DNA of 64,000 bases, taken from assembly GCA_049976445.1 (NCBI GenBank), contig JBMFIF010000002.1:5115-69114 (forward strand). Reading direction: 5' to 3'. Positions 4,326 to 42,287 of this stretch are shown piece by piece. Positions within the stretch are counted from its first letter, which is position 1; every line of letters starts with the position of its first letter. The DNA is from Thermoprotei archaeon. GTDB taxonomy: Archaea; Thermoproteota; Thermoprotei; Gearchaeales; WAQG01. A program made the translations under genes and the position numbers. A model generated the notes under the pieces. That model was not told where the DNA came from. It did no database searches and saw nothing but the letters and a program-made list of their open reading frames with translations.

Positions 4326-4565
4326 TTATTTATCACCAAATCTATGATAACAAAATACTAAAATAAAAGAGAAGTATTTTGCATACCTCAAAGCATAAAT
4401 GAAAATATGCTATAAAATGTTCATTAAATAACAGCAAAACATTTCATGTATGGGTTATAAAATGGGAATGAAGCATTATGATAAGCAATAAATTAGTTTA
4501 GAATTATTCGTACGTTAAACACTACAAAATCTCGTGTACTTTAAAAAGACACTCATTAGCTTATT

Positions 4566-5957
4566 TTATCCTAACATAAGTTTAATGCTTCTGAGGAAAT
4601 CTGAAAAGCATTCGCGAGCAATGTTTGTTATTGATAAATCTTTTTTACTGATGTTTTTGGATAATCGTTCTATTCTATATGATACAGGTGGATGTGCATC
4701 AAACCATTTTAACCACGAATAGGCTCTAGTAGAGTAATCTTGTTCATACTTGAGTCTTCTATATCCTATCCTCTTTAATGCCTCTATGAGGGAATCAGCG
4801 CTATTTGTATAAAATGCTCCTACTAGGTCAGCTCTTTCCTCAAAAAATTTTGCGATGAAAAATACTGTTGTGAAGGAGAGCATTAGGTATAAGTAAGCTA
4901 ATATGATTGGTATGTTTAATGTTATGAGAATTCTTATGATGTATTCAATAGAGAATAATGTTGATACTATTATAGGATCGTAATTGACTATGTGACTAAA
5001 TTCGTGAGCAATGACAGCCTTGATCTCATTTTCTTTTAATGTCATCAGTAGACCAATCGTTATTGCTATGGTAGCATATCTTTTTGAGATACCTGTTGCT
5101 GCAGCGTTTGATATTGTTGTATTTATTAGAGTGATTTTAGGCATGTTGATACGAAAGTTTTTTCTTACTTCATCAACTAGTCCGTATACATCTATACTAG
5201 TTATCTTAACATTCAGAACGTTTATGCCATATTTGTTTAGTATGTTTGTTACTGTCAGGTTGTCTATGGAGTTGTTTATTTTTATTGTTTGTTCGTAGAT
5301 TTCTTTTTTAATTTGTGCTTTATTTTTAGATATTATGTTAATGCTTTTTATGTATTCATTTTCTGGTATCCAGCATTCGACTATGTATGCGTGTCGATTA
5401 TCTTGAGTGATTTTGTAGTCACTAATTTTTAGCATTATCTTATCTGAGAATAGCAAGATTACATATTGACTTAGAACTAATAATATTGGTAAATAATATC
5501 CTAAAAAGTAAAAGCCGATTGTAGCTATTAGAATTAATATACCAATCATAGCGATTGGGTTTCCTAAAAGAAGTTTTAGTATAATATTTTCTGTTCTCGA
5601 TTTTTCTGTTAAGTAATACTTATCTGTGAAAAGGAAAGCGACGGATTTTGCAGGTTGTTGTAATGTGAGAGCTGGATAGAGTAAGCCTTTTATTATCTCA
5701 TACGCCTTGTTAGCAATTTTAATATCCCCGTTTGACCAGATTACTACCATTGGTTCTTCTTCAGGGACTATTATTGCTCGTGCATTTATTTGTTGTAAGG
5801 ATATCTCTATTGCACTGTAATTCTGGAAAGTTGTTTCTGTAAAAGGTATGTTTTTTTCTTCAATTTTTTTCTTTACATCATTTTTGTTTAAGGATTCTGG
5901 TAATCGATATATGAATGGTATGTTGCTATCTTCTGGACTAGCCAGCATCAAAGTCAC
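4566..5957 (-). CDS. membrane Zn-metalloprotease, M48/HtpX-like (HEXXH)
   Basis: IAHEFSHIV (HExxH) embedded in a multi-TM region, with an N-terminal soluble domain; 463 aa. Confidence 0.55.
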   Translation of the reverse strand: MTLMLASPEDSNIPFIYRLPESLNKNDVKKKIEEKNIPFTETTFQNYSAIEISLQQINARAIIVPEEEPMVVIWSNGDIKIANKAYEIIKGLLYPALTLQQPAKSVAFLFTDKYYLTEKSRTENIILKLLLGNPIAMIGILILIATIGFYFLGYYLPILLVLSQYVILLFSDKIMLKISDYKITQDNRHAYIVECWIPENEYIKSINIISKNKAQIKKEIYEQTIKINNSIDNLTVTNILNKYGINVLNVKITSIDVYGLVDEVRKNFRINMPKITLINTTISNAAATGISKRYATIAITIGLLMTLKENEIKAVIAHEFSHIVNYDPIIVSTLFSIEYIIRILITLNIPIILAYLYLMLSFTTVFFIAKFFEERADLVGAFYTNSADSLIEALKRIGYRRLKYEQDYSTRAYSWLKWFDAHPPVSYRIERLSKNISKKDLSITNIARECFSDFLRSIKLMLG

Positions 5958-10226: not shown

Positions 10227-12443
<2,217 letters not shown>

Positions 12444-34342: not shown

Positions 34343-35158
34343 TTGATAAAAATGTGGTATTTAGATACTCTAGACCGTAAACCTTTAGGTAGAACAAGAG
34401 AAACTGTACCTGCGATCGGTATTGGAACATGGGCTGTAAGGGACTTTAATAAAGCCGAAACAGCTTTAGTTAAAGCAGTAGAGCTTGGGCTTAATATGAT
34501 AGATACTGCAGAAATGTACCACACAGAAGAACTTGTAGGTAAAGTTATCAAAAAGGTTGGTAAAGAGAACGTTTTCATAACAACTAAACTTTTACCTGAA
34601 CACTTTTCAGATGTTGACAATGCATTAAATGCAGCTAAATTAAGCCTTTCAAGATTAGGAATTAATATTGTCGATTTAATTCTAATACACTGGCCTAGAA
34701 CCTTCACACCCATCGAAAAACAAGTCAGAATACTAGAGGCAATAGCCAACGCAGGGTATTCCAGATACATAGGTGTGAGTAATTTTAATGTTAACCAGCT
34801 TTCAAAAGCAACACAATCAACCAAAAAACATGAAATAGTAGTAAACCAAGTAAAATATAGCGTGTTAGATCGAACAATAGAGGATAACTTATTATTATAT
34901 GCTATAGAGCATGGTATAACAATACAAGCATACACACCATTAGAGAAAGGTAAGGTTTCAAACAATAAAATTTTATCTGAAATAGGTAAAAAATACAATA
35001 AGACACCAACACAAGTAGCATTAAATTATCTTATCTCTAACCCCATGGTGACTGCAATACCAAAAACAGAAAAAATCGAAAGAGTATTAGAATTTAAAGG
35101 ATCATTAGGATGGAGACTTATGAAAGAGGACATAGAATTCATTAAGAGCAAAATTTAA
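34343..35158 (+). CDS. aldo/keto reductase
   Basis: AKR motifs (IDTAEMYHTEELVG; LIHWP); 271 aa. The overlapping minus ORF 34294-34998 is a shadow frame. Confidence 0.8.
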   Translation: MIKMWYLDTLDRKPLGRTRETVPAIGIGTWAVRDFNKAETALVKAVELGLNMIDTAEMYHTEELVGKVIKKVGKENVFITTKLLPEHFSDVDNALNAAKLSLSRLGINIVDLILIHWPRTFTPIEKQVRILEAIANAGYSRYIGVSNFNVNQLSKATQSTKKHEIVVNQVKYSVLDRTIEDNLLLYAIEHGITIQAYTPLEKGKVSNNKILSEIGKKYNKTPTQVALNYLISNPMVTAIPKTEKIERVLEFKGSLGWRLMKEDIEFIKSKI

Positions 35159-35192: not shown

Positions 35193-35241
35193 CTCTGACC
35201 TCTTCCCCACCCTGAAGGGCGAAGTTTGTCCTTCTTTTATC
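35193..35241 (-). repeat. GC-rich repeat element, short form (inverted relative to 26527-26673)
   Basis: Reverse complement GATAAAAGAAGGACAAACTTCGCCCTTCAGGGTGGGGAAGAGGTCAGAG equals the long form with the segment between its two CTTCAGGGYGG cores deleted. Confidence 0.5.
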
Positions 35242-36411: not shown

Positions 36412-37151
36412 TCAAGTTGATAAAACAATTAAAAGCCCTCTTATCATTTCTTACAATAATACCAGTAAAAGAGGAACACGATCTAAAAACAATTGCAGAA
36501 GGTATACACCTCTTTCCATTGATAGGATTTTTCACCGGAATCCTAACAGGATTTATAGCATACCTTATCTCAAGAGTATACCTAAGTCTTTTAACGGGAA
36601 TAATAGCAGTATCATTCCTGGAATTTATAACAGGACTTCACCATTTTGACGCATTGTTAGATTTTGGTGATGGTATTATGGCTAAAACAACACCAGAAAA
36701 GAAAATAGAAATTATGCATGATAAACAAACAGGAAGCGGCGGATTCTGGTTAGGTATTACAATAATTGGAATAAAAATATTTTCAATATCACAATTACAT
36801 GGATTACAACTCTTTACAGCAATAATTCTTTCAGAAATCTCCGCAAAACTTTCAATGGTAATAGGAATGTGGCTAGGCAACCCAGCTTACCCCTCTAGTA
36901 CAGCAGTACCGTTCATAGAAGAAGCACATAAAAACCCTAAAAAACCATTAATAGCTCTTATATTCTCATTATTCATAGCATTACTCTTCATGACAGAAGG
37001 AATATTAATGATAATTACAAGCATAATAGTGGCAGTAATCATTGAACATCTATCACAAAAACATTTTAAAGGTATAACTGGCGATGTATTGGGATCCATG
37101 GATGAAATAACATCAGCTCTCTCATTATTAGTATTAGTGAGCATAATATGA
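36408..37151 (+). CDS. cobS: adenosylcobinamide-GDP ribazoletransferase (cobalamin synthase) CobS
   Basis: 247-aa polytopic membrane protein of CobS size and topology, in an operon with cobY. Confidence 0.6.
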   Translation: MIKLIKQLKALLSFLTIIPVKEEHDLKTIAEGIHLFPLIGFFTGILTGFIAYLISRVYLSLLTGIIAVSFLEFITGLHHFDALLDFGDGIMAKTTPEKKIEIMHDKQTGSGGFWLGITIIGIKIFSISQLHGLQLFTAIILSEISAKLSMVIGMWLGNPAYPSSTAVPFIEEAHKNPKKPLIALIFSLFIALLFMTEGILMIITSIIVAVIIEHLSQKHFKGITGDVLGSMDEITSALSLLVLVSII

Positions 37152-37768
37152 TAAAAATTAAAGCTCTAATCATGGCAGGAGGAAAAGCAACCAGAATGAA
37201 TAACATAGAAAAACCCCTCATAAAAATATGCGGAACCACAATGATAGAAAGAATACTCAATGCACTAAAGAACACTAAGTGCATAGAAGATGTATATATA
37301 ACAACAAGTAAAAATACGAAAAACACAGAAATCCTACTTAAAACCTTAGGATATAAAACAATAACAACTTCAGGAGAAGATTATGTAGAAGACTTAAAAA
37401 ACACAATTATAAAACTAAACATAAAAGATCCCATATTAGTATTACCATCCGATCTACCATTAATAACACCAAATACAATAGAACAATTAATCAATATTTA
37501 CATACAAAACAACTCTCCACCAACAACGACGTTTTACATACCATTGCAACTACTAAAAACAAAAATACGAACAAACTACATAGAACAAATAAATAATATA
37601 AAAGTAATACCATCTGGCATTAGTATAATAAAAGGATCATACATTACGCAAAATGTAATACCGCAAATAAACATAATAGTCGAAAACACAGAATTAAGCG
37701 TTAACGTGAATACGTTATTAGATATAAAAATTGCACAATCAATTTTATGCAAAAGAAATAATAAGTAG
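37148..37768 (+). CDS. cobY: adenosylcobinamide-phosphate guanylyltransferase CobY (archaeal NTP-transferase type)
   Basis: MAGGKATRM nucleotidyltransferase G-loop; 206 aa, as in archaeal CobY. Confidence 0.6.
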   Translation: MIKIKALIMAGGKATRMNNIEKPLIKICGTTMIERILNALKNTKCIEDVYITTSKNTKNTEILLKTLGYKTITTSGEDYVEDLKNTIIKLNIKDPILVLPSDLPLITPNTIEQLINIYIQNNSPPTTTFYIPLQLLKTKIRTNYIEQINNIKVIPSGISIIKGSYITQNVIPQINIIVENTELSVNVNTLLDIKIAQSILCKRNNK

Positions 37769-37802
37769 TTAAATCAAAGATAAATTTGACATATTATTTA
37801 TT

Positions 37803-37903
37803 TTATACTCAAGAAGATACTAATGAAATTAAAGAAACATTACTAAAAATTAATACCATGGTCAATGAACCGAAAAATAGCTCGATGATACTTAAAACAA
37901 TAT
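37803..37903 (+). repeat. direct repeat copy A (about 100 bp), containing a truncated 5' fragment of an ABC permease gene
   Basis: About 80% identical to 40488-40590. Encodes MVNEPKNSSMILKTIF*, a decayed copy of the N-terminus MIVNELANSSMILKTIEE of the permease at 40543. Confidence 0.65.
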
Positions 37904-38278
37904 TCTAGGATGTTCATTGCAGAAACAGTGTACCACTATTCGTTATCCCTACCCCTCCATGAGGGATTACGGTTCCATCCTTCAGTACTATGTTTAAGAC
38001 TCCAACGATATCTGAATTCATTACTTAATTACAGTTTGGACAATAAATAATCCTTTATGCAATGCTCTTTAGTCCAAAAATTTCAATCGGTTTTGATTAT
38101 TTTCTCAGTAAATTATAAAATAAGTTCAATTTCAAGATAACTCATATATAGGTCAGTAATTATAGTAAAAATTTAAACACTAAACTTTTCACTAATAAAC
38201 AACTAGATAATTATTGTCTTGAAAAACATTTAGAAAACATTTAAATGCAGTTTCTTACACAATACTACGGGAAAGTTC

Positions 38279-38530
38279 GTGGAGAAATCAATTGAAGAGT
38301 TTGAGAAAGAAATCGAGAAAGTAAGTAGATACAAGATTAAAGCCATGATTGCATTACTTAAGCTCAGAGAAGAATATGGTGCGGAATATTTAAAAAAGAA
38401 ACGTGGAGCTATACGAAATAAGGATGAACTTCGTAAACTTGCTGAAGCCTGTAAATTAAACTGGAAATTTATGGAAGAGGTGGGAATAATACGACGCATC
38501 AACAACAAGGAAATAATAATAGCAATATGA
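38279..38530 (+). CDS. small helical protein (GTG start), possible antitoxin/regulator
   Basis: 83-aa ORF overlapping the downstream NTase-fold gene by 4 bp (ATGA). Confidence 0.3.
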   Translation: MEKSIEEFEKEIEKVSRYKIKAMIALLKLREEYGAEYLKKKRGAIRNKDELRKLAEACKLNWKFMEEVGIIRRINNKEIIIAI

Positions 38531-39120
38531 TCTCAGAATTTAGAAATCAATTTAAATTGTTTAGTGAAAAACTATTATTCATCAAAGATACTACTATGAG
38601 ATTTCTTATGTTATTGGCATTCATTAATACTTTTTTAGAAAAACATGCCTTAGGCAAAATAATAATCTCTAGAGGTTTTGCTGCTGAATTTTATAGCGGG
38701 GGTGGGTACAAAACTTTAGATGTTGATGTGATAGTTGAAGGAAAAACTGAAACCGTAAACCTGTTAAAAGAACTTTTAAAATCAATTGGCTATATTGAAT
38801 CTGGCAGATTTTATGTAGCAACACTATCAAGTTTAGTTGATAAAGCGCTCGACATAGTCGGAGTAGTTTATGACAAACCTAAACCACCCATAAAAATAAA
38901 AACAAACGAATACCATGTTTACATGATACCACCTGAAGAAGCAATAATTTATGCTTTAGCAGCAGCTAAATACTGGCTCTCAGTTTCAGATTTTGAAAGA
39001 GCTGTCTTAGTTTATGTAGTACAAAAAGAAAACCTTGATATCGAATACCTTAAAAAACGAGCTAGAGAAGAAAATGTTACAGAGTATCTAACCAAAATTA
39101 TAGAAATCGCAGAAAAATAA
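38527..39120 (+). CDS. nucleotidyltransferase-fold protein (GGG...DVDV motif), function unknown
   Basis: SRGFAAEFYSGGGYKTLDVDVIV resembles a G[GS]-x-DxD minimal NTase core; 197 aa. Confidence 0.3.
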   Translation: MISEFRNQFKLFSEKLLFIKDTTMRFLMLLAFINTFLEKHALGKIIISRGFAAEFYSGGGYKTLDVDVIVEGKTETVNLLKELLKSIGYIESGRFYVATLSSLVDKALDIVGVVYDKPKPPIKIKTNEYHVYMIPPEEAIIYALAAAKYWLSVSDFERAVLVYVVQKENLDIEYLKKRAREENVTEYLTKIIEIAEK

Positions 39121-39206
39121 TCCTATCTATATCACCTGTGGGTCTTATAATTGTGTAATTTCTTATAAAAATTAACAAAAAAGAGAAGATCGAAAAACTA
39201 TGAAAA

Positions 39207-39452
39207 GTGAAGAATAAAGAATATAATGACCTATCTCCTAAAGATCGGAATATAGCTATGGTTTTTCAAAATTATGCTCTCTATCCTCATATGAGTGTTT
39301 ATGATAATATTGCATTTCCTTTAAAAATGAAAAATTTTCTAAACTTGAAATTGATAAGAAGGTTAAGTATGTTGCTGAACTATTCAGGGCGGAGAGCTCT
39401 CCGACGAGTTTCGTGCTCATGGAGGTCAACGGCCTACACCCCAGTCAGTTCT
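39207..39452 (+). pseudogene. MalK-type ABC ATPase remnant (lacks Walker A, frameshifted after KMK)
   Basis: [29 protein letters not shown] is the Q-loop region of sugar ABC ATPases. No upstream Walker A. A shifted frame continues [18 protein letters not shown] and then diverges. Confidence 0.6.
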
Positions 39453-39470
39453 GTAAACACAGAACTGACT
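39443..39470. terminator. perfect 12-bp stem / 4-nt loop hairpin (AGTCAGTTCTGT-AAAC-ACAGAACTGACT) followed by a T-rich tract
   Basis: Read directly from the sequence; lies between convergent genes. TTTTATTTTTTAT at about 39513-39525. Confidence 0.45.
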
Positions 39471-39559
39471 AATATGTTATATAAGGAGGTCAGAATTCAT
39501 TATTACCAGCTATTTTATTTTTTATAGAAAAAAGCAAGGAATGTTTATTCTTAATGAGA

Positions 39560-40354
39560 TTATTTCCTAGTTACATAGAAGCTGGTTCCATCTGTAGTTA
39601 ATGGTGATGGTTGGGCTAACACTTTTCCATTGTTACTTACCATTATTACATATTCGTGTGGTAGGTCTCCTATTCGAGCAGTTATGCCACCGATGGTAGC
39701 ATAGTTTGTGTTCTGAATGTTTGTATAATCATAACCGTAATATGCTGTTCCAAAATTAGCGAGTATAGTTAAGCTTCCAGCTATTGCTGGCCTTTCTTCT
39801 ATCCATTCTGCAGATAGCATGGATGAAGTGTAGTTAACAAGTATTGAAAAGTGTTCGTTTTGTGTTAAATCATTTAGTGTTATGTTCCATTCTTGTGTTG
39901 TAGTATTTATTATTCTTACCATGAATATCATGGCAAACATATAGTCTCCTGGTTTCACAACATAACCTGATATTCTGGTTTCCGAAGCTGGCAGTAATTC
40001 ATACCATGCATAATAGAAAGTTTGGCTTTGCCATGAATCGGATTCGGTACCTGTTTGGATTAAAGAATTATCTCCTGAAAAGAAACCACCTATACCAATC
40101 CACTGAGATGAGTAAACAGGCTTTTTGCTTGGTTGGACTGTTTGAACTATCCATGAACCATTAACTGCAGTAACGGAGGGTGTGGGATTAGTAAAGCTTG
40201 ATGCTACAACATATCCTGCCCAATTTAAAGAATATACTTGATTTTTCGGAACATTATGCGATGCTGTTACATCTGTAGTTGGTGAGAAGCTCGGTATTAA
40301 AAGTAGTAATATTACTATGCTTATTATGTTCACGTAACGATTTTTATAGCTCAT
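39560..40354 (-). CDS. secreted G1-family (eqolisin / scytalidoglutamic-type) peptidase homolog
   Basis: Signal peptide; SLNWAGYVV near the mature N-terminus; SSQWIGIGG (catalytic Gln context) and SAEWIEERP (catalytic Glu context) match the peptidase G1 family; 264 aa. Confidence 0.65.
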   Translation of the reverse strand: MSYKNRYVNIISIVILLLLIPSFSPTTDVTASHNVPKNQVYSLNWAGYVVASSFTNPTPSVTAVNGSWIVQTVQPSKKPVYSSQWIGIGGFFSGDNSLIQTGTESDSWQSQTFYYAWYELLPASETRISGYVVKPGDYMFAMIFMVRIINTTTQEWNITLNDLTQNEHFSILVNYTSSMLSAEWIEERPAIAGSLTILANFGTAYYGYDYTNIQNTNYATIGGITARIGDLPHEYVIMVSNNGKVLAQPSPLTTDGTSFYVTRK

Positions 40355-40487
40355 GATTTATTTTAGTTTTACAAGTTAATAAGCTTACTTGTTAATTGGT
40401 TAATAGTGAAGTTACAAAAGAATGAAGTCCTAAGCTTTAAAGGGCGAGAAGATCATATATTAAACTCTGGAAATTTGTAATTTGATA

Positions 40488-40590
40488 TTATACTCAGGAA
40501 GATATTAATAAAATTAAAGATAACTCACTATCAAAAATTGGTATGATAGTTAATGAGCTGGCGAATAGTTCGATGATACTTAAAACAATA
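40488..40590 (+). repeat. direct repeat copy B (about 100 bp), forming the promoter and 5' end of the ABC permease gene
   Basis: See copy A; spacing between copies is about 2.7 kb. Confidence 0.65.
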
Positions 40591-41436
40591 GAGGAGAATT
40601 ATGATAGTTTCATAGAAACTGTTCTGAGCGATGTGAGCAGTGAGATTAGTAGGTTGTCTATTCATTTCGTTGGATTACAAAATTTTGCAACACTCTTTAC
40701 TGATTCTAGATTTCCATATTCAATTTTTAAAACAATTCTCTTCGTGTTAACCAGCGTACCTTTAAAGGTTATTTTTGGAATTATAATAGCATTTCTTTTT
40801 TCAAGTCCACTAATTTACGGTAGAAAAATTATGCGAGCAATGTTATTAATTCCATGGGCTCTACCAGTACTCCTCTCAGTAACAACATGGAGAATGCTAT
40901 TTGCCCCCGATGGCCCATTAGCCTTGATTCTCAGTCAGATGTTAAATTATAAATTCAGCATCTATACTCATGAATGGGATGCATTTTTTGTGTATAATAT
41001 TGTAGAGATGTGGTTAGCATACCCATTCATAATGACTATAACAATGGGTGCAATAGCAAGTGTACCTAAAGAATTTATAGAGGCATCATATATGGATGGG
41101 ATAAGCGTTTTCTCTCGGTTTAGAAAAATCATGTTACCTTTAACAATTAAACCTATACTCTTTGCAACAATACTTACTAGTGGCGCATCGTTACAGGCGT
41201 TTATGGTACCGTTACTTATAAACGATGGTGGACCAACAACTATGATAAAGTTACCAGGATTTACTTCAACCCTTGGAAATGCAAACGAATTAATGATCCT
41301 TTATGGATACAATAGAGCCTGGCTAGATCAACAATATGGTCTTTCGACAGCTACATTTCTCGTAGTCGTCGCTATTCTATTCATATATGCATTAATATGG
41401 TTTTACTTCATCTATAGAAGAGGTACCACAAAATGA
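40543..41436 (+). CDS. ABC sugar transporter permease (MalF-like)
   Basis: EAA-type motif region (FIEASYMDGISVFSRFRKIMLP), 6 TM helices, 297 aa. Confidence 0.75.
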   Translation: MIVNELANSSMILKTIEENYDSFIETVLSDVSSEISRLSIHFVGLQNFATLFTDSRFPYSIFKTILFVLTSVPLKVIFGIIIAFLFSSPLIYGRKIMRAMLLIPWALPVLLSVTTWRMLFAPDGPLALILSQMLNYKFSIYTHEWDAFFVYNIVEMWLAYPFIMTITMGAIASVPKEFIEASYMDGISVFSRFRKIMLPLTIKPILFATILTSGASLQAFMVPLLINDGGPTTMIKLPGFTSTLGNANELMILYGYNRAWLDQQYGLSTATFLVVVAILFIYALIWFYFIYRRGTTK

Positions 41437-42287
41437 AAGTATTCAAATTTAGGTATTATATTATCAAACTGACATTAACATTAGTTGCAATACTAATAGT
41501 CTTTATGATTCTTTATCCATTGATGTATGATATCATGACTTCAATAGTAAGTGGACAAACATTAGTGACAAGCATTAATGATATGACAAAACGTGGTCTA
41601 TCAGTATCGCATTATTTATCAGCCATAACTGATCCACATTTCATTAACGCAACAATAATAAGTATTATGGTAGCATTAGTGAATATCATATTATCACTAC
41701 TAATAATAACACCAGCAGCCTATGCATTTTCAAGGTTTGAGTTTTTCGGAAAGAACACATTACTAATACTTTATCTAATACTTAGTCAAATAGGTGGAGG
41801 GTTTGGAATTGCAAGCGTAATAGCATTGTACGTATTTTTATTAAAACTTAATGCATTAGGGTTACCTGTAATAGGTAATCCATTAGTCTTACCAATCATA
41901 TACACATCCACAGCAGTGCCATTCCAGACGTGGTTAATCAAAAACTATTTTGACTCATTACCTAAAAGTTTAGATGAAGCTGCATTTATAGATGGTGTTA
42001 GATGGAATGATATAATATTCAGAGTGATCTTGCCAGCATCAAAACCAGCTATTATAATCATAGCATTATTTGCATTCATGGGGGCATGGGGAGAATTCAT
42101 AATAGCCAATTTTCTAAGAATTGAGACATTAGCGGCATACATTTATGAAACAGCCACAGGACAAACAATATATTGGAGTGACTTCGCTGCAAGAACACTA
42201 CTTTTCGCAATACCAATAATCATAATGTACGTGTTGACACAAAAATACATAGGAGAAGCAATGAAGTACGGAGCTGGAAAACTCTAA
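41433..42287 (+). CDS. ABC sugar transporter permease (MalG-like)
   Basis: LDEAAFIDGVRWNDIIFRVILPASKP EAA motif; 284 aa. Confidence 0.8.
   Translation: MKVFKFRYYIIKLTLTLVAILIVFMILYPLMYDIMTSIVSGQTLVTSINDMTKRGLSVSHYLSAITDPHFINATIISIMVALVNIILSLLIITPAAYAFSRFEFFGKNTLLILYLILSQIGGGFGIASVIALYVFLLKLNALGLPVIGNPLVLPIIYTSTAVPFQTWLIKNYFDSLPKSLDEAAFIDGVRWNDIIFRVILPASKPAIIIIALFAFMGAWGEFIIANFLRIETLAAYIYETATGQTIYWSDFAARTLLFAIPIIIMYVLTQKYIGEAMKYGAGKL

Follow-up and report, generated by a model that had tools for sequence, protein, structure and literature searches.

The 64,000-nucleotide stretch analyzed here (positions 5,115 to 69,114 of contig JBMFIF010000002.1, assembly GCA_049976445.1, from a Thermoprotei archaeon), which is called the window throughout, carries a piece of an ATP-binding cassette (ABC) sugar permease gene twice in the same orientation, about 2.7 kb apart, with genes unrelated to sugar transport among those lying between. 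The question raised by this locus is whether the intervening DNA arrived as one mobile unit that duplicated its target, or whether the two copies were left behind by the breakdown of a transporter locus. The original prediction, made from the letters alone, read the arrangement as an insertion or duplication-mediated rearrangement that had split an ABC sugar transporter locus. Part of this reading stands, in that a rearrangement broke the locus, the upstream copy is a duplicate that has decayed, and a malK pseudogene is present; the part that falls is the single accessory insert. Our results suggest that the repeat is probably a rearrangement scar in a decaying maltodextrin-uptake locus, rather than a duplication that a 2.7-kb mobile unit made of its target or attachment site.

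Positions 37797–37902 and 40482–40590 align by blastn as direct repeats with 85 of 109 positions identical (78%) and one 3-nt indel, scoring 87.8 bits (E = 3e-20) against the whole 64-kb window, where the same program found no third copy; a self-repeat search splits the pair into two in-register blocks offset by 3 nt, which blastn merges. The direct repeats of about 80% identity in the original prediction are accordingly real. The local G+C content is just 26–29%, which could favor a chance match between AT-rich, low-complexity sequences. When the upstream copy was queried against 100 first-order Markov random 64-kb sequences with the dinucleotide content of the window, the best match averaged 27.1 bits and reached 33.7 bits at most (n = 100), so that AT-richness is no explanation for the 87.8 bits observed, and both copies separately hit one common stretch of a gene that is whole in another organism. 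Coincidence can therefore be dismissed with near certainty, and with it the caveat of the original prediction that AT-rich composition alone might account for the similarity. Leftward extension of the similarity is not significant, the left flanks behaving like shuffled sequence (P ~0.4–0.5); to the right, an extension to ~37930 is weak between the copies (P 0.04) and unsupported against the intact gene (P 0.31).

Both copies find their counterpart in a sister lineage in which the permease gene is whole. The upstream copy (37798–37902) is 80.6% identical to nucleotides 4402–4509 of the sister-lineage contig L020, and the window from 40485 to 43823 matches L020 4404–7728 at 93.3% nucleotide identity. 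On these alignments, both copies correspond to codons ~178–213 of a MalF-like permease of 494 aa, intact in the sister lineage, and this stretch falls in the long external loop between the first transmembrane helix (TM1, residues ~18–48) and TM2 (~257–285). The downstream copy (40482–40590, plus strand) forms the beginning (~106 nt) of what is left of the permease gene and includes the first 16 codons of the 297-aa open reading frame (ORF) that starts at 40543. It had been taken for a promoter and the first 17 codons of that gene; in fact the whole copy is former internal coding sequence of the 494-aa permease. The match of the permease encoded on a more distant relative's contig (L002) in tblastn runs upstream of the ATG at 40543 back to 40492, the peptide encoded just upstream of this ATG, YYTQEDINKIKDNSLSKIG, aligns with residues 180–197 of the sister permease P0001, and the ATG itself is an internal Met that P0001 also has. 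The stretch 40485–40542 is now untranslated and is preceded by a TGA at 40483. What had been called a duplicated permease 5′ end thus belongs to a gene that is itself 5′-truncated by 197 codons. The upstream copy (37797–37902, plus strand) is an orphan, decayed fragment of the same ancestral codons with a 3-nt deletion, and its translation ends in MVNEPKNSSMILKTIF followed by a stop. Here the prediction of a decayed version that ends in a stop just after cobY holds, the ORF reading exactly so, with 16 private substitutions in addition to the deletion.

The extent of the breakdown becomes visible when the window is set against intact loci. Relatives of the permease at 40543 occur in Desulfurococcales, Pyrodictiaceae and Sulfolobales genome bins at 57–71% amino acid identity, where they are named arabinogalactan oligomer/maltooligosaccharide permease in the sources. 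Their common locus plan opens with a large unannotated ORF (1136 aa long in L002) and continues with a MalK ATPase, an opposite-strand ORF of 678 aa, a binding protein and two permeases, the first of ~500 aa; the 297-aa ORF of the window matches only the last ~300 residues of their ~500-aa permeases. A protein search found P0001 (494 aa, from the sister-lineage contigs L020 and L021), which is 96% identical across all 297 aa, at residues 198–494. These two contigs, of the lineage represented by GCA_964615525.1 / ERZ1669417, carry, in order, the 3′ part of malK, an opposite-strand GH13 alpha-amylase in the position occupied by the 678-aa ORF of the other relatives, a 453-aa ORF in the binding-protein position (no Pfam match on record), the 494-aa permease and the second permease, and then a 2-hydroxyacid dehydrogenase and an ABC ATPase; the same dehydrogenase and ATPase follow the second permease in the window. 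Compared in this way, the two lineages show that their common ancestor carried intact malK, opposite-strand GH13 amylase, binding-protein, 494-aa permease and second permease genes, and that, by the same comparison, the species of the window has lost most of malK, the genes for the amylase and the binding protein in full, and ~177 codons from the start of the permease.

Between the copies, the 2.6-kb interval is by its content a mosaic and not a single insert. A relic of malK, the sugar ABC ATPase gene, lies at 39200–39435 on the plus strand and covers codons ~68–150 of ~370, with a 13-nt deletion near 39334 and frame changes; it matches residues 74–113 of the L002 MalK in tblastn (E = 3e-15) and aligns at the nucleotide level with malK of L010–L012. 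As the order and orientation of the relic relative to the permease are those of the intact loci, this part of the interval is most simply read as left in place. Next to it, a gene for a G1 (eqolisin) glutamic peptidase (39560–40354, minus strand), together with 130 nt of unrelated upstream DNA, replaces ~5 kb of the ancestral locus that held the 3′ part of malK, the amylase, the binding protein and the 5′ part of the permease. Those 130 nt (40355–40484) have no similarity to L020 and presumably act as a promoter region that drives the peptidase gene in one direction and the truncated permease in the other, a TATA-like TTTAAA being located at 40437–40442. Further upstream in the interval is a two-gene cassette encoding an 83-aa protein (38279–38530, plus strand) and a 197-aa protein with a predicted nucleotidyltransferase (NTase) fold (38527–39120, plus strand). 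Relatives of this pair with 65–79% amino acid identity occur in other Thermoproteota bins, always as the same pair, the 83-aa gene preceding a 171–198-aa partner in every case (L030–L036). In these three other contig groups, the cassette stands alone in unrelated contexts, with an aromatic amino-acid operon, an MNT/HEPN pair (once directly upstream) or glycosidase genes as neighbors, and its nucleotide similarity of 71–74% is confined to the two ORFs. Judged from these contexts, the cassette is independently mobile.

A single accessory segment of 2.6–2.7 kb, with the ~106-nt repeats as a long target-site duplication or as attL and attR, was the model of the original prediction, and two features do fit it, namely that the repeats bracket a block in which the peptidase and the NTase-fold cassette have no relation to sugar transport and that the downstream copy is continuous with the permease gene. 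We nevertheless regard it as very improbable, considering that cobY, instead of the 5′ part of the permease, lies to the left of the upstream copy, that the block includes the malK relic in ancestral order and orientation, and that the cassette travels alone elsewhere and never with the peptidase. For a target-site duplication, the repeats are 106 nt long and only 78% identical, with no terminal inverted repeats at the ends of the interval and no intact transposase, and the sole putative trace of a transposon is of the IS200/IS605 type, which makes no target-site duplication (PMC8612924, PMC10055086). For an attachment-site pair, none of the ORFs of 37903–40484 (83-aa, 197-aa, malK relic and peptidase) matches an integrase family, and the permease gene does not continue to the left of the upstream copy; furthermore, no tRNA genes were found, which excludes a tRNA-type attachment site. 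The copies are also 22% diverged from each other, compared with 99.9% identity among conspecific samples.

These conspecific samples come from five other contigs that are 99.8–99.97% identical to the window (L017, L018, L019, L038 and L039). L017, L018 and L019 contain the full arrangement with no polymorphism across 37769–40590, L038 covers the junction at the downstream copy only, and L039 covers only DNA downstream of the repeat. The comparison with related genomes that had been proposed for finding the empty site came back negative, as none of these samples has one and the arrangement is fixed in the data. On the left, the upstream copy follows cobY (adenosylcobinamide-phosphate guanylyltransferase; 37148–37768, plus strand; Pfam NTP_transf_3, E = 7.8e-18; also the name of protein P0121 in a source), the last gene of a conserved cobalamin-salvage operon. 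The cobY stop codon stands 28 nt before the repeat, and the 29-nt stretch between the two has no similarity to permease sequence (P 0.48). The operon is conserved in L022 and L024–L029, where other genes follow cobY; in the relatives with ~70% identical cobY, these are a winged-helix regulator and a glycosyltransferase, with nothing in that downstream neighborhood matching within the window; the different genes following cobY indicate that its adjacency to the maltodextrin remnants is specific to the present lineage.

To the right of the upstream copy, a mobile element appears to have left its mark. The minus-strand segment 37917–38093 probably derives from the 3′ end of a tnpB gene of the IS200/IS605 type, so that the upstream copy lies between the end of cobY and this putative relic, ending where the relic begins, with the stop codon of the relic 11 nt from the end of the repeat. 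Translated from 38093 down to 37917, it includes RIIYCPNCN, a stop, VMNSDIVGVLNIVLKDG and a further stop, with the second CxxC of a zinc ribbon (the CPNC half) and a RuvC-III motif of the form D.VG.LNI, interrupted by two in-frame stops. It aligns with positions 38–60 of the 60-position profile PF07282 (Cas12f1-like/TnpB zinc ribbon) at E = 7.6e-4 and 20 bits, below the cut-off of 26.3, and with positions 362–387 of 389 of the NCBIfam model guided_TnpB at E = 0.026, likewise sub-threshold. No intact copy of the element was found in the window or the fetched loci. Searching 37903–38278, 39121–39212, 39333–39559 and 40355–40484 against the window and all loci for further relics returned only this tnpB-like motif. 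Elements of the IS200/IS605 family insert without target-site duplication and excise without a scar (PMC8612924, PMC10055086), and since such an element makes no target duplication, it may mark a breakpoint and promote rearrangement without itself creating the repeat.

According to the reading we prefer, the events would have run as follows. The permease would first have been cut at ancestral nucleotide ~4402; the first ~106 nt of the truncated gene would then have been duplicated ~2.7 kb upstream in a multi-step rearrangement associated with an insertion sequence; and the orphan upstream copy would have decayed afterwards. Overall, truncation and replacement, partial duplication, and insertions of an insertion sequence and a cassette would have shaped the locus, rather than one insertion event. 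The copies start at the same ancestral nucleotide (4402 versus 4404) and their left flanks are unrelated, which indicates that the upstream copy was probably copied from the already truncated gene. Within the 105 aligned nucleotides, the upstream copy has 16 private substitutions in addition to its 3-nt deletion, compared with 5 in the downstream copy and 2 in L020, so that the alignment shows the upstream copy to be the fast-evolving one, the pattern expected if it were unconstrained. Campbell-type integration, tandem duplication followed by deletions, and recombination mediated by an insertion sequence followed by scarless excision were considered as well, and each needs an extra coincidence for the common left boundary.

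Several observations weigh against this history. At 4-fold sites, the window and L020 differ at 60 of 358 positions (16.8%), or ~9% per lineage, and the private divergence of the upstream copy, 16/105 (15%) plus the indel, is ~1.7 times the ~9 changes expected since the split, an excess with P ~0.03 in a rough Poisson estimate by hand. Such divergence would place the duplication at or before the split, yet the gene of the sister is intact. The coincidence of the left boundaries within 2 nt, despite unrelated left flanks, is itself a difficulty, in that truncation followed by duplication fits a common boundary only on condition that the junction was precisely where the duplicated tract started. 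The order of events is deduced, as no intermediate genome was found, and the sister contig stops at the malK 3′ end, leaving nothing upstream of malK for comparison; a metagenome scan with the sister-lineage GH13 protein, aimed at that upstream flank, returned one 36% relative only. The tnpB assignment, for its part, relies on sub-threshold profile matches to a stretch of 23–26 aa, and searches with the relic gave no TnpB, phmmer of 35 aa against 1.84 billion representatives returning one unrelated repetitive protein and a PDB search only noise.

Part of this difficulty would disappear if the upstream copy were foreign, that is, a permease fragment from a relative diverged by ~20% and brought in with the end of an insertion sequence or with the cassette by recombination, so that its divergence would not date the truncation. 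A foreign origin would account for a copy more diverged than the split allows at the 4-fold-site rate, and it would require no long-term selection on the truncated gene; it is also favored by the sole indel being in frame and the reading frame of the copy staying open for 40 codons, by balanced substitutions (7 AT-to-GC and 7 GC-to-AT in a hand count from the alignment), and by the adjoining, probable mobile-element relic. However, it leaves unexplained why the left boundary matches that of the resident truncated gene within 2 nt, no donor-like sequence was found, L020 remaining the best match among all fetched loci, and the differences by codon position (3, 6 and 9) are not different from uniform. 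Codon-position counts and substitution direction together do not separate neutral decay from coding-constrained divergence. We consider such an import unlikely, and the rearrangement scar remains the favored account.

The guide-dependent biology of IS200/IS605 elements touches the right end of the repeat. The last 21 nt (37882–37902 and 40570–40590), on the side of the putative tnpB relic, do not differ between the two copies and L020, the rest being 73% identical; the probability of such a run is 0.003 at the tnpB-proximal end, an end chosen post hoc, and 0.07 anywhere. In this family, the RNA of the element takes its guide from the ~16 nt next to the right end (PMC8612924), and preservation of the 21 bases in the orphan copy as the guide of the insertion sequence's RNA is only a lead. 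At the other junction, to the left of the downstream copy, positions 40482–40486 read TTGAT, which is missing at that position in the intact relative. TTGAT is the target motif of ISDra2, a member of the IS200/IS605 family (PMC8612924), and its occurrence here may be chance in AT-rich DNA. A TnpB-like C-terminal motif, VMHADVVGVLNIAVRYGAIM followed by a stop, was also observed in L024–L029 at ~12234–12303, 1.6 kb downstream of cobY and on the opposite relative strand, and could be a coincidence or a shared old insertion.

What remains of the transporter does not look like a pair of pseudogenes. The truncated MalF-like permease (40543–41436, plus strand) has 297 aa instead of 494, the 3′ 60% of the ancestral gene, and lacks TM1 and most of the ~210-aa external loop, thus departing from the full-length MalF-like architecture of TM1, long external loop and core (~480–500 aa in relatives). 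By hydropathy, it keeps the core from TM2 to the last helix behind an acidic tail of ~59 residues (4 K/R, 8 D/E), and its BPD_transp_1 membrane domain is recognized by Pfam at E = 1.5e-12. The MalG-like second permease (41433–42287, plus strand; Pfam BPD_transp_1) is intact and identical to the L020 protein at 277 of 284 aa. The ratio of nonsynonymous to synonymous substitution rates (dN/dS) between the window and L020 is 0.060 for the truncated permease and 0.067 for the second permease, compared with 0.060 for the neighboring dehydrogenase, and polarized amino acid changes number 7 on the window branch versus 5 on that of L020. From these values we infer that purifying selection continued to act on the truncated permease and on its partner. 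If the truncated allele was the source of the orphan, such selection has acted on the pair for most of the time since the split; otherwise, the orphan is older than the truncation or was imported.

Alternatively, the truncation could be very recent and the permease pair already dead, with the low dN/dS reflecting a functional past and the upstream fragment being an older, unrelated relic. Neither a binding-protein match nor an intact malK was found within the 64-kb window, where only the ~80-codon malK relic is left, so that a complete ABC sugar importer is absent from the locus; the truncated product lacks TM1, and dN/dS from two lineages cannot date a loss of constraint, all of which speaks for a recent death. 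The common left boundary, however, links the old-looking upstream copy to the truncated allele, both permease ORFs are open in a 34% GC genome with the window branch having no excess of amino acid change, and the arrangement shows no polymorphism and is fixed in the five conspecific samples, which leaves little probability for a pair that has only just died. Whether the truncated MalF-like core and the MalG-like partner still form a working transporter half, kept by selection since soon after the sister split under a new promoter common to the peptidase gene and with a binding protein and ATPase encoded elsewhere, is a more tentative matter, and we regard it as possible but doubtful.

For annotation, the locus is a trap. 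On a JGI contig, the 297-aa protein is named [quoted passage not shown], and this "ABC permease" corresponds to the rear 60% of a gene whose full product has 494 aa, and its locus has lost binding protein, amylase and ATPase, so that maltodextrin uptake in this organism should not be inferred from these permease genes. Should selection truly be acting on the truncated pair, the pair would offer a natural experiment on how small the core of this importer class can be. The locus further provides a well-bounded, dated example of how a catabolic locus of an uncultured member of the Thermoprotei was dismantled and overwritten by a secreted acid peptidase and a small mobile cassette, with the probable trace of an insertion sequence at one breakpoint.

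The contents listed for the segment by the original prediction, a small-protein/NTase pair, a malK pseudogene at ~39200–39435, a perfect 12-bp hairpin and a minus-strand G1 peptidase, were all borne out. The peptidase has a Pfam Peptidase_A4 domain (E = 2e-22) and a hydrophobic N-terminus, and it is named G1 family glutamic endopeptidase by NCBI. It matches aspergillopepsin II (1y43) at E = 3.5e-7, with the Q of LIQTG and the E of AEWIEE kept, also in comparison with scytalidopepsin B; the Gln and Glu of these motifs, which we take to be the catalytic pair of G1 peptidases, place the protein within this family together with its domain. The hairpin, a perfect 12-bp stem with a 4-nt loop, was found by self-match at 39443–39470 and is preceded by a 12-nt palindrome, GGAGAGCTCTCC, at 39385–39396, in a locally G+C-rich region just past the malK relic (39385–39470) that folds better than its shuffles (z-scores −3.4 and −3.7). 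This region occurs once in the window and matches no Rfam family, and Rfam gave nothing at the gathering threshold in the whole window, nor at E <= 1 for 37700–40650.

The AlphaFold2 model of the 197-aa cassette protein (mean pLDDT 87.6) has the NTase-like structure 5uvd, MenT1 (8an5/8an4) and ANT(2″)-Ia as its top Foldseek matches, with a TM-score of ~0.5, and the E-values for MenT1, TglT and ANT(2″) range from 1e-3 to 1e-2 at this modest TM-score. A GG...DxD motif (G59, G60, D65 and D67) is invariant. The predicted fold makes the protein a candidate toxin of MenT/AbiEii-like type, with no match in Pfam, NCBIfam or PADLOC, AbiEii included, and we infer from its company that the 83-aa protein, which has no significant family match and no recognized fold or family, is a candidate antitoxin. 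It had been asked whether the G1 peptidase and the NTase pair travel together, and this was not seen, the cassette never being beside a G1 peptidase or mal genes in the three other contig groups; viral contigs, scanned with either the peptidase or the 197-aa protein, gave no match.

Further upstream, the cobalamin operon shows variation of its own. The slot between cobD and cbiZ is occupied by an aldo-keto reductase in the window (34343–35158) and an acylphosphatase in L022 (7416–7967), and is empty in L024–L029 (L024 7949–8156). In the spacer between the aldo-keto reductase gene and cbiZ, ~40–45 nt at ~35195–35238 (beginning with CTGACCTCTTCCCCACCCTGAAGGGCGAAGTTTGTCC) are present in the window and absent from the otherwise 99.9% identical L017–L019, and this indel is bounded by a short CTTTCT-like repeat.

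Parts of this locus resemble several known systems. The cassette is like the MenT/AbiEii toxin-antitoxin pairs in that a small gene overlaps one for a ~200-aa protein with a predicted NTase fold and GG...DxD, as a unit in varied contexts; it differs in matching no AbiEii or PADLOC profile, in its TM-score of ~0.5 and in a small partner without a recognized fold. The truncated permease recalls the five-helix minimal core of type I ABC importer permeases, e.g., MetI, as it keeps TM2 to the last helix, and its acidic tail, to judge from its composition, could stay outside the membrane; it differs in that the locus retains no cognate binding-protein or ATPase gene and the truncated product is known from sequence alone. 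With "peel and paste" insertion of IS200/IS605 elements by TnpA/TnpB, the locus shares a tnpB-like 3′ end that adjoins the upstream copy and 21 identical nucleotides of about guide length, whereas only a ~180-nt fragment with stops and sub-threshold matches is retained and the family makes no target-site duplication.

In outline, the locus also resembles prophage attachment sites inside protein-coding genes with duplicated gene ends, such as that of element e14 in icd of E. coli. Both show a ~100–165-nt direct repeat of a gene piece with a diverged copy, bracketing non-homologous DNA, with the functional portion of the gene still attached to one of the copies; here, in contrast, the repeated piece is internal, cobY lies beyond the upstream copy, there is no integrase, and the bracketed mosaic includes a relic of the host locus. 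The relics that operon decay by illegitimate recombination leaves are matched by the malK and permease fragments in ancestral order, by genes replaced with unrelated DNA and by one orphan diverging freely; the present case differs in its two fragments with exactly the same upstream breakpoint and in a truncated gene and partner that show no decay. According to these comparisons, the structure fits best among rearrangement scars, a kind already known, and does not represent a new kind of system.

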